NCBI RefSeq assembly: GCF_003334765.1
Contig: NZ_QOWT01000047.1
Length of the DNA stretch: 21,426 nucleotides
Reading direction: 5' to 3' (one strand)
Origin: Escherichia coli
GTDB taxonomy: Bacteria; Pseudomonadota; Gammaproteobacteria; Enterobacterales; Enterobacteriaceae
Shown: one piece after another, positions 4,679 through 9,259 of the stretch
Layout of the letters: every line of letters starts with the position of its first letter
Numbering within the stretch: position 1 is the stretch's first letter
Notes under the pieces: generated by a model
What the model was told of the DNA's origin: nothing
The model's database searches: none
What the model saw: only the letters and a program-made list of their open reading frames with translations
Translations under genes and position numbers: made by a program

Positions 4679-7600
4679 ATGAACAGGACCAGTCCCTATT
4701 ATTGTCGCCGCTCAGTACTTTCCTTATTGATATCTGCCTTGATATATGCCCCGCCCGGGATGGCTGCCTTCACTACTAATGTTATTGGTGTGGTAAACGA
4801 TGAGACTGTAGATGGCAACCAAAAAGTGAATGAACGAGGTACAACAAATAACACTCATATTATCAACCATGGCCAGCAGAATGTTCATGGCGGGGTATCT
4901 AATGGAAGTCTTATTGAATCTGGTGGATATCAAGATATAGGAAGTCATAACAATTTTGTGGGGCAGGCTAATAATACAACCATTAACGGTGGCAGACAGT
5001 CAATTCATGACGGGGGTATTTCCACAGGTACGACAATCGAGAGTGGCAATCAGGACGTTTATAAAGGGGGTATCAGCAATGGAACGACAATTAAGGGCGG
5101 TGCTTCACGCGTAGAGGGAGGGAGTGCGAATGGAATACTCATTGATGGTGGTAGCCAGATAGTAAAAGTTCAAGGGCATGCTGATGGTACAACGATAAAT
5201 AAGTCTGGCTCTCAGGACGTAGTACAAGGAAGTCTGGCAACGAACACAACCATAAATGGTGGTCGACAGTATGTTGAACAGAGCACAGTAGAAACAACAA
5301 CCATTAAAAATGGCGGTGAGCAAAGAGTATATGAGAGCCGTGCGCTGGACACGACGATTGAAGGCGGAACTCAGTCTCTGAATAGTAAGTCAACGGCAAA
5401 AAATACGCATATCTATTCTGGTGGCACGCAAATTGTTGATAACACCAGCACCTCGGATGTTATTGAAGTTTATTCTGGTGGCGTGCTTGATGTTAGTGGT
5501 GGTACGGCAACAAATGTTACCCAGCACGATGGTGCAATTTTAAAAACTAACACTAACGGTACGACGGTGAGCGGTACGAATAGTGAAGGTGCATTCTCCA
5601 TCCACAATCACGTGGCAGACAATGTGTTGCTGGAAAACGGTGGTCATTTAGACATAAACGCATATGGTTCGGCAAACAAGACGATTATTAAAGATAAAGG
5701 AACAATGTCAGTTTTAACCAATGCTAAAGCTGATGCGACCCGAATAGATAATGGCGGGGTTATGGATGTTGCAGGAAACGCGACAAATACCATAATTAAT
5801 GGTGGCACACAGAATATTAATAATTATGGCATAGCCACAGGCACCAATATCAACAGCGGAACGCAAAATATCAAAAGCGGCGGGAAAGCTGACACAACAA
5901 TTATATCCTCCGGGAGCCGGCAGGTTGTTGAGAAAGATGGTACGGCAATTGGCAGCAATATTAGCGCCGGAGGCTCGCTGATTGTCTATACCGGCGGTAT
6001 TGCACATGGGGTTAACCAGGAGACGGGCAGTGCTTTAGTTGCCAACACGGGTGCAGGGACTGATATCGAAGGATACAACAAGCTCTCTCACTTCACTATT
6101 ACCGGAGGGGAGGCTAATTATGTTGTGCTGGAAAATACCGGCGAACTGACGGTAGTGGCTAAAACCTCGGCGAAAAATACTACCATTGATACTGGCGGTA
6201 AGCTGATTGTCCAGAAGGAGGCTAAAACAGATAGCACCAGACTTAATAATGGCGGCGTTCTGGAGGTTCAGGACGGTGGTGAGGCTAAGCATGTTGAGCA
6301 ACAATCCGGCGGCGCATTAATTGCTTCCACGACCTCCGGAACACTTATCGAAGGAACCAACAGTTATGGTGATGCTTTCTACATCAGGAATTCAGAAGCT
6401 AAAAATGTAGTGCTGGAAAACGCTGGCTCATTAACAGTCGTCACTGGTTCCCGCGCAGTTGACACGATTATTAATGCCAACGGCAAAATGGATGTTTATG
6501 GAAAAGATGTTGGCACTGTACTCAATAGTGCTGGCACCCAAACAATATATGCCAGTGCCACTTCTGATAAAGCAAATATCAAAGGTGGCAAGCAAACGGT
6601 ATATGGTTTAGCCACTGAAGCAAATATCGAAAGTGGTGAACAAATTGTTGATGGTGGGTCAACAGAGAAAACACACATCAATGGTGGCACGCAAACCGTT
6701 CAGAATTATGGTAAGGCAATCAATACCGATATCGTCTCTGGCCTACAACAAATTATGGCAAACGGGACAGCGGAAGGTTCCATTATTAATGGGGGTTCAC
6801 AGGTAGTTAATGAGGGCGGTCTGGCTGAAAACTCGGTGCTTAATGACGGCGGCACACTCGATGTGCGGGAGAAAGGCAGCGCAACGGGGATACAGCAGAG
6901 TAGCCAGGGCGCTTTGGTTGCAACCACCAGGGCGACGCGGGTCACAGGAACACGCGCGGATGGCGTCGCGTTCAGCATCGAGCAGGGTGCGGCGAACAAT
7001 ATCCTGCTGGCAAATGGCGGCGTGTTAACCGTGGAGTCAGACACCTCTTCTGACAAAACACAGGTCAATATGGGCGGACGGGAGATCGTCAAAACAAAAG
7101 CCACTGCGACAGGCACGACGCTCACCGGCGGTGAACAAATTGTCGAGGGTGTGGCGAATGAGACAACAATTAACGACGGCGGAATACAAACAGTTTCAGC
7201 TAACGGAGAGGCAATAAAAACAAAGATCAATGAAGGCGGTACGCTGACAGTCAACGATAATGGCAAAGCGACAGATATCGTCCAGAACAGCGGTGCCGCT
7301 CTCCAGACGAGCACGGCTAACGGTATTGAAATCAGCGGTACTCACCAGTACGGTACTTTTTCCATTTCCGGCAATTTAGCGACCAATATGTTGCTGGAAA
7401 ATGGCGGTAATTTATTGGTATTAGCAGGTACCGAAGCTCGCGACTCCACGGTTGGCAAGGGTGGGGCAATGCAAAACCTGGGTCAGGACTCCGCCACAAA
7501 GGTTAACTCTGGCGGGCAATATACCCTTGGGCGGTCAAAAGATGAGTTTCAGGCTCTGGCCCGGGCAGAAGATCTCCAGGTCGCTGGCGGTACGGCAATC

Positions 7601-9259: not shown

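Follow-up and report, generated by a model that had tools for sequence, protein, structure and literature searches.

Structural rungs, a slipping proline-rich spacer and a variable tip in the YpjA/EhaD autotransporter adhesin of Escherichia coli

Does a surface protein built from dozens of similar repeats change its length through those repeats, or do the repeats serve its fold? The question is raised by a giant autotransporter gene in a 21,426-nt stretch of Escherichia coli DNA (contig NZ_QOWT01000047.1), referred to here as the window. The preliminary description of this DNA held that the internal repetition of the gene would favour recombinational length variation and antigenic diversity. 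The answer that we favour, at a probability of roughly 93%, is that the gene is ypjA/ehaD and its product a classical (type Va) autotransporter adhesin from the AIDA-I/Ag43/TibA group, in which the passenger repeats are structural rungs, a PxP spacer slips and the tip is variable.

Establishing which gene this is comes first. In a six-frame list of open reading frames, the + strand is open from 4550 to 9259 (1569 codons), and the annotated start, the ATG at 4679, gives an intact ORF of 1526 aa (Table 1). A megablast search with positions 4400-9400 against 5,426 complete E. coli genomes found ypjA of strain H3 (WP_002431070.1) at 100% identity over 5 kb and K-12 derivatives at 99.9%, and the annotation in these matching genomes reads 'ypjA: adhesin-like autotransporter YpjA/EhaD'. 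Since both matches carry that annotation, the flagged gene is the known ypjA, named ehaD in EHEC; to judge by its sequence, this accessory gene is an already catalogued surface adhesin and not a new one. The class given to it in the preliminary description, a giant autotransporter, is confirmed by the domains, but its identity with ypjA/ehaD had gone unrecognised. Relative to K-12 ypjA (b2647), the window CDS carries 3 nt differences in 4581 and zero indels. The ehaD gene of O157:H7 is 97.8% identical to the window gene and is like it in length, domain order and chromosomal position; this allele has an additional 6-nt unit in the linker and differs at 93 positions by substitution. As in other strains, the gene lies between ileY, upstream, and ssrA, which in island-free strains begins 160 nt past the ypjA stop. 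Collinearity with K-12 extends from 78 to 9432 of the window, and with strain H3 over its full length, save for an IS3 insertion in H3. Both adhesin typing schemes and surface display, where it serves as a scaffold, already make use of ypjA/ehaD, and the significance of the present locus is small beyond its correct annotation.

Table 1. Positions in the window of ypjA/ehaD, its parts and the elements around it.
Feature	Position	Strand	Basis or remark
ileY, CAT-anticodon tRNA	1569-1644		Rfam and annotation
39-aa upstream ORF, conserved, hypothetical (RefSeq WP_001120794.1)	4495..4614	+	also occurs upstream of the ymgJ-minE paralogue
Shine-Dalgarno-like AGAGG	4665..4669	+	9 nt 5' of ATG 4679; read from sequence
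ypjA/ehaD CDS	4679..9259	+	1526 codons and stop
Sec signal peptide MNRTSPYYCRRSVLSLLISALIYAPPGMA, aa 1-29, short type without ESPR extension	4679..4765	+	sequence; PMC13101318
Passenger, right-handed beta-helix of 17-19-aa rungs	4766..7846	+	Pfam, autocorrelation, repeat HMM, AlphaFold2/Foldseek (predicted fold)
Pertactin-type PF03212 C-terminal passenger domain (autochaperone region), aa 1057-1180	7847..8218	+	Pfam, phmmer
Proline-rich PxP linker KPNPDPIPNPKPDPKPDPKPDPNPKPDPTPDPTPTPVPEK, aa 1183-1222 (40 aa)	8225..8344	+	tandem 6/12/18/42-nt repeats at 8245-8325; length-polymorphic
Translocator, aa 1223-1526: pore-spanning alpha-helix region, then outer-membrane beta-barrel	8345..9256	+	Pfam, NCBIfam, phmmer
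Beta-barrel PF03797, aa 1265-1504	8471-9190	+	Pfam E = 1.5e-46
Terminator-like GC hairpin, then TTTTG	9341..9356	+	82 nt 3' of the stop; consensus match only

The product has the domain order of a signal peptide of 29 aa, a passenger of ~1030 aa, an autochaperone, a PxP spacer of 40 aa and a C-terminal barrel translocator. The signal peptide can be read from the sequence as a basic n-region, a hydrophobic core and the motif GMA-A, and a 29-aa signal peptide is listed for YpjA/EhaD in PMC13101318. Pfam, run on the product as two overlapping halves, returned 12 AIDA (PF16168) matches at E <= 0.001, five of them full length. These full-length modules of ~63 aa (aa 298-360, 464-526, 558-619, 756-818 and 886-946) interrupt the series of rungs. 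Among the NCBIfam models, TIGR01414 spans aa 1083-1526 with 329 bits, against a cut-off of 16. The C-terminal barrel, taken together with the signal peptide and a single-chain passenger, assigns the predicted product to the classical (type Va) autotransporters, and the rung-built passenger with its pertactin-type autochaperone places it in the AIDA-I-type beta-helical adhesin group (Group 4, or SAAT-like). A phmmer search of the PDB sequences agrees with this assignment, returning Ag43 variants (E = 7e-34 to 1e-28), TibA (5e-26) and pertactin, with the barrels of BrkA (3qq2) and Vag8 (7akv) aligning to aa 1218/1244-1526.

The structure prediction of the beta-helix that the preliminary description had proposed was carried out on aa 29-1182 with AlphaFold2 and a 34-sequence alignment. 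The model consists of beta structure throughout, its short strands grouped in triplets (mean pLDDT 81, pTM 0.43), and in a Foldseek comparison with solved structures it comes closest to Ag43 (E = 2e-19), TibA and pertactin. Model confidence dips five times, in each case at the start of one of the five full-length AIDA modules or just ahead of it; the helix may be irregular or bent at these points, as it is in Ag43.

Ag43 is the best match of YpjA among solved structures in both sequence and fold. In both proteins the passenger is a beta-helix of ~19-aa rungs that includes AIDA modules and a pertactin-type autochaperone, and a barrel comes after it. They differ in that the YpjA passenger is about twice as long and in that the signal peptide of YpjA is a short one of 29 aa, whereas that of Ag43 is of the 52-aa ESPR type. 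Ag43 is known as a self-associating autotransporter. Identity with Ag43 can be rejected, as the preliminary description had done on the grounds of a different N terminus: the Ag43/Cah equivalog NF033177 scores 349.9 bits against a cut-off of 1200, the signal peptide is short, and the ESPR domain PF13018, which TibA-like relatives carry, has no match in the N-terminal 1100 aa of YpjA. The three-GATC Dam/OxyR switch can be set aside as well, in keeping with the earlier reading. On a count of GATC sites between 3701 and 4900, GATC occurs just at 4019 and 4320, 301 nt apart, so the three-site cluster is absent.

Comparison with the glycosylated members of the group gives a similar picture. AIDA-I itself is rejected as an identity, the NF033176 score being 262 bits against a cut-off of 1200. 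The strand-loop-strand rung repeat of AIDA-I and TibA, TIGR04415, is common to YpjA (219 bits) and is the target of O-heptosylation in AIDA-I and TibA. Among the annotated neighbours of ypjA there is no heptosyltransferase of the aah/tibC type, the upstream neighbours being pseudogene fragments and the 39-aa ORF; the locus is therefore not expected to bring about glycosylation of the TIGR04415 repeats. TibA-family proteins are ~35% identical to YpjA over 80% of its length, and EhaD adjoins TibA in published trees.

From the established type Va pathway, a route to the surface can be proposed for the product. YpjA would cross the inner membrane through Sec, its barrel would be inserted into the outer membrane by BAM, and the passenger would be threaded out C terminus first, folding vectorially on the pertactin-type autochaperone. 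The result would be a long, rigid, bent beta-helix, about twice the length of the Ag43 alpha-domain, which would promote surface adhesion and biofilm formation when ypjA is expressed. The PxP spacer slips in frame by 6-nt steps, most likely shifting the stand-off of the helix from the membrane. The passages on YpjA/EhaD in several reviews attribute to it adhesion and biofilm formation on overexpression (Roux 2005 and Wells 2008, as cited in PMC3796261, PMC9289746, PMC4076661 and PMC12547504). According to PMC9289746, the mode of adhesion (self-association or a receptor) is unsettled and there is no published structure.

With the architecture in hand, the repeats of the passenger can be considered at the protein and the DNA level. 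At the protein level, the periodicity is strong. In a BLOSUM autocorrelation over aa 29-1000, lags 18 and 19 stand out, with z = 9.0 at lag 19 relative to 200 shuffles, and an iterated repeat HMM detects 37 units between aa 46 and 978, whose in-register spacings are 19 (10 times), 18 (8), 17 (6) and multiples of these. The repeat is degenerate from unit to unit, and a passenger of this length has room for ~55 rungs at most. The family consensus from 34 relatives, GGxQxVxxGGxAxxTTI, agrees with the motif noted before, and with a spacing of 17-19 aa and 37 detected units, '19-residue' and 'dozens' are acceptable terms for the repeat and its number. At the DNA level, copies within the passenger share 60-83% identity across stretches of 18-54 nt. 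No exact direct repeat exceeds 14 nt, a length that lies within the 10-15 nt given by shuffled sequence and argues for structural and against recombinogenic repeats. In E. coli, recombination that depends on RecA requires ~20-30 nt of identity, so that the passenger copies, with exact repeats of 14 nt or less, are poor substrates. The passenger repeats are beta-helix rungs kept at the level of the protein, not recombinogenic DNA repeats. The suggestion that the passenger repetition feeds recombination consequently fails on two counts, as the DNA copies are too diverged and no change in rung number was seen in the alleles sampled. Reiterated protein motifs in beta-helical autotransporters are, in other words, no evidence for recombinational length variation.

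The alleles themselves can be used to see where length does vary. Of the 5426 complete genomes, 2440 carry at least 80% of ypjA. Allele lengths were taken as BLAST spans in complete E. coli genomes from an evenly spaced sample of the ranking, which gave 27 full-length hits; together with 60 linker regions, these ~27 genes are a sample of a larger collection. Full-length alleles measure 4569, 4575, 4581 or 4587 nt, with one of 4551 nt, and three of the 27 hits lack 1 nt, a loss that would disrupt the reading frame. When five alleles were aligned to the window, indels fell at 8286-8291 in the linker repeat (6 nt more in O157:H7, 6 nt fewer in others), and the sole indel in the passenger was a loss of 6 nt at 5652. 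No gain or loss of a whole rung occurs among the ~27 sampled full-length alleles. The comparison of passenger length and repeat number across alleles that had been suggested for this gene thus has a divided outcome: lengths vary, through the linker (-24, -6 and +6 nt) and the one 6-nt passenger site, while the number of rungs is constant.

The linker is a different kind of repeat. Tandem Repeats Finder reports DNA repeats of periods 6, 12, 18 and 42 at 8245-8325; an earlier reading had seen a linker encoded by short tandem repeats, correctly, and had placed it at 8221-8340, 4 nt off its actual position. A linker-only search at the ypjA locus gave spans of 401, 407, 395 and 377 nt and length variants of -24, -6, 0 and +6 nt, whose peptides differ by PK, PD or PN dipeptide units. 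About half of the linker-matching records fall in a band of 90-95% identity, and those sampled there are the alleles of plus or minus 6 nt. All of the sampled indels in the linker at the ypjA locus are in frame, so no on/off switch results. The alleles also track lineages (the O157:H7 genomes in the linker sample all carry the +6 form), which argues for rare rather than rapid events. The PxP linker is a real in-frame, slippage-prone repeat and the only true DNA tandem repeat in ypjA. Keeping passenger and spacer apart in this way should help to keep later scans from over-flagging beta-helix passengers as contingency loci. A linker hit 144 nt longer was rejected as an allele of ypjA; it sits at the paralogous locus between ymgJ and minE and was left out of the allelic variation.

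This paralogous locus has a history of its own. In ~5300 genomes, the region upstream of ypjA (4300-4649, including the 39-aa ORF) and the last 345 nt of the gene recur, fused, between ymgJ and minE. To go by the matching ends, the fused segment is a deletion remnant of a ypjA paralogue (K-12 'ycgI'-type), and in almost all genomes it is a stub of ~600 nt. Strain VE-T9 has an intact paralogue of 1154 aa between ymgJ and minE, which, compared with ypjA, is missing two blocks of the passenger (642 and 582 nt) and has a linker much expanded by a run of ~36 NP dipeptides. These differences indicate that block-wise change of passenger length and large linker expansion have occurred in the history of the family, but neither is mirrored among the sampled ypjA alleles.

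A broader role for the spacer can be imagined, although we consider it unlikely. In-frame slippage would here be adaptive, setting the stand-off of the tip beyond the O-antigen or capsule of each strain, and it would be joined by gene conversion of 3' sequence between ypjA and the ymgJ-minE paralogue. The range of the spacer, from -24 to +6 nt at ypjA and up to ~36 NP units in the intact paralogue, is what can be cited for the first part. For the second, the paralogue is 94-95% identical to ypjA over the 3' 2.4 kb and 87-89% identical in the upstream region, and it is because the 3' portion is so much closer than the 5' part (87%) that conversion may have taken place. If the adaptive reading is true, linker length should co-vary with the type of surface polysaccharide.

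Sequence diversity, as distinct from length, is found at the other end of the protein. In five alleles, the number of variable amino acid positions per 100 aa is 16-26 in the first 300 residues and 4-13 elsewhere, and dN/dS falls from 0.53 in aa 30-300 to 0.17 in aa 301-1056 and 0.11 in aa 1057-1526. The values of 0.11-0.17 over most of the length imply purifying selection; ypjA is thus under purifying selection overall, with a membrane-distal N-terminal tip that is relaxed or diversifying. Protein variation among alleles arises from substitution and not from a change in repeat number, with allelic recombination possibly an added source. The diversity once ascribed to internal repetition is instead a matter of substitutions concentrated in the N-terminal ~300 aa. 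In short, changes of length are confined to the microsatellite-like spacer, and substitutions concentrate diversity at the distal tip.

These same values bear on whether ypjA is a living gene at all. It could be held to be a decaying, silent relic of an old island between ileY and ssrA, with repeats and polymorphisms that reflect neutral drift. Its surroundings are AT-rich and crowded with pseudogenes (of a DUF5507 gene and an amylase, together with a recombinase fragment), more than half of the complete genomes are without an intact copy, and a separate class annotated as a pseudogene combines a 1320-nt deletion (about 7455-8774) with frameshifts. The reduction of the ymgJ-minE paralogue to a stub and the lack of a consensus promoter just upstream of ypjA fit the same idea; the latter refers to a consensus scan of the + strand over the 300 nt ahead of the ypjA start, uninformative as to regulation or expression, in which no sigma-70-like site was seen. 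Against decay, the 4.6-kb ORF is intact across lineages that diverge by up to 6% at the nucleotide level, dN/dS is low across most of the gene, the linker indels preserve the frame, and the reviewed passages give adhesion and biofilm formation as phenotypes of overexpression. On this evidence we regard a neutral relic as very unlikely. The Rfam search of the window returned tRNA only and showed neither a riboswitch nor a leader RNA upstream of ypjA, and a literature search for ypjA together with H-NS found nothing specific.

The reading with which the locus was first flagged, a contingency locus whose repeats would let passenger length or expression switch rapidly and reversibly, as in tandem-repeat surface proteins of other bacteria, can draw on the strain-to-strain differences in linker length, the NP run of the VE-T9 paralogue and the two passenger blocks that separate that paralogue from ypjA, but it is hardly credible given frame-preserving linker changes that follow lineage, exact passenger repeats no longer than 14 nt with a constant number of rungs in the sample, and the missing GATC/OxyR switch.

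The surroundings of the adhesin gene also differ between strains. Similarity of the window to K-12 and to island-free strains stops at 9432, and where K-12 has CP4-57 downstream of ypjA, the window has another, AT-rich island, which encodes a DUF6387 protein, an HTH regulator, a relaxase and an ankyrin-repeat protein.

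Allelic amino-acid polymorphism in the AIDA-type autotransporter adhesin YpjA clusters at the N-terminal tip of the passenger, aa 30–300 (window 4766–5578), which carries 16–26 variable sites per 100 aa, compared with 4–13 in the rest of the protein. The same division is seen in dN/dS, which is 0.53 in the tip but only 0.11–0.17 elsewhere. A recurrent allele class (loci L006 and L007), found in isolates from a dog, a pig and one unrecorded source, has a 1320-nt deletion at about window 7455–8774; the lost stretch runs from the last part of the passenger through the autochaperone and linker into the first part of the barrel. 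Annotated as pseudogenes, the alleles of this class have 1-nt frameshifts as well, and the deletion junction has no obvious flanking direct repeat.

A ypjA paralogue lies between ymgJ and minE (corresponding to window 4300–4649 plus 8915–9269; positions 3900–4601 in comparison locus L009; also locus L012). In about 5300 of the 5426 complete E. coli genomes it is reduced to a stub of ~600 nt, in which the ypjA upstream region (89% identity) is joined to the final 345 nt of the gene (95.5% identity). An intact copy of 1154 aa occupies this site in strain VE-T9; relative to ypjA it is mosaic, with 87% identity in its 5′ part versus 94–95% over the 3′ 2.4 kb, a pattern that hints at gene conversion. 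A short ORF located 64 nt upstream of ypjA (see table) is also kept upstream of the paralogue, with 34 of 39 residues conserved. It could encode a leader peptide, or the region could be no more than conserved promoter DNA.

Features annotated around ypjA, in window coordinates
Feature	Position	Strand	Remark
tRNA, CAT anticodon	1569-1644	+	ARAGORN: tRNA-Met; RefSeq: tRNA-Ile (ileY)
39-aa ORF MPHSYAEYHHFIMMSLMSGEHNTLALSLQDESPGLVPVG	4495-4614	+	hypothetical by annotation
Relaxase/mobilisation nuclease	15842-17077	-	downstream island
Ankyrin-repeat protein	17683-18636	-	downstream island

The CAT-anticodon tRNA is presumably the lysidine-modified Ile2 tRNA. The DNA around ileY is 33–38% GC, and its flanks hold pseudogenes, namely an amylase-like gene, DUF5507 and a recombinase fragment.

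Downstream of ypjA, the match to K-12 and to island-free strains ends at window 9432; this point falls 14 nt inside the place that the ssrA 3′ end occupies in strains without an island. From there to about 21426, an AT-rich island takes the place of the K-12 CP4-57 prophage; in addition to the products in the table, it encodes a DUF6387 protein and an HTH regulator. It is apparently a mobilisable element that targets ssrA. The island of strain H3 carries an IS3 insertion (23200–24457 of comparison locus L002) that is missing from the window at 15094–15098, and outside this insertion strain H3 and the window are 99.8–100% identical.
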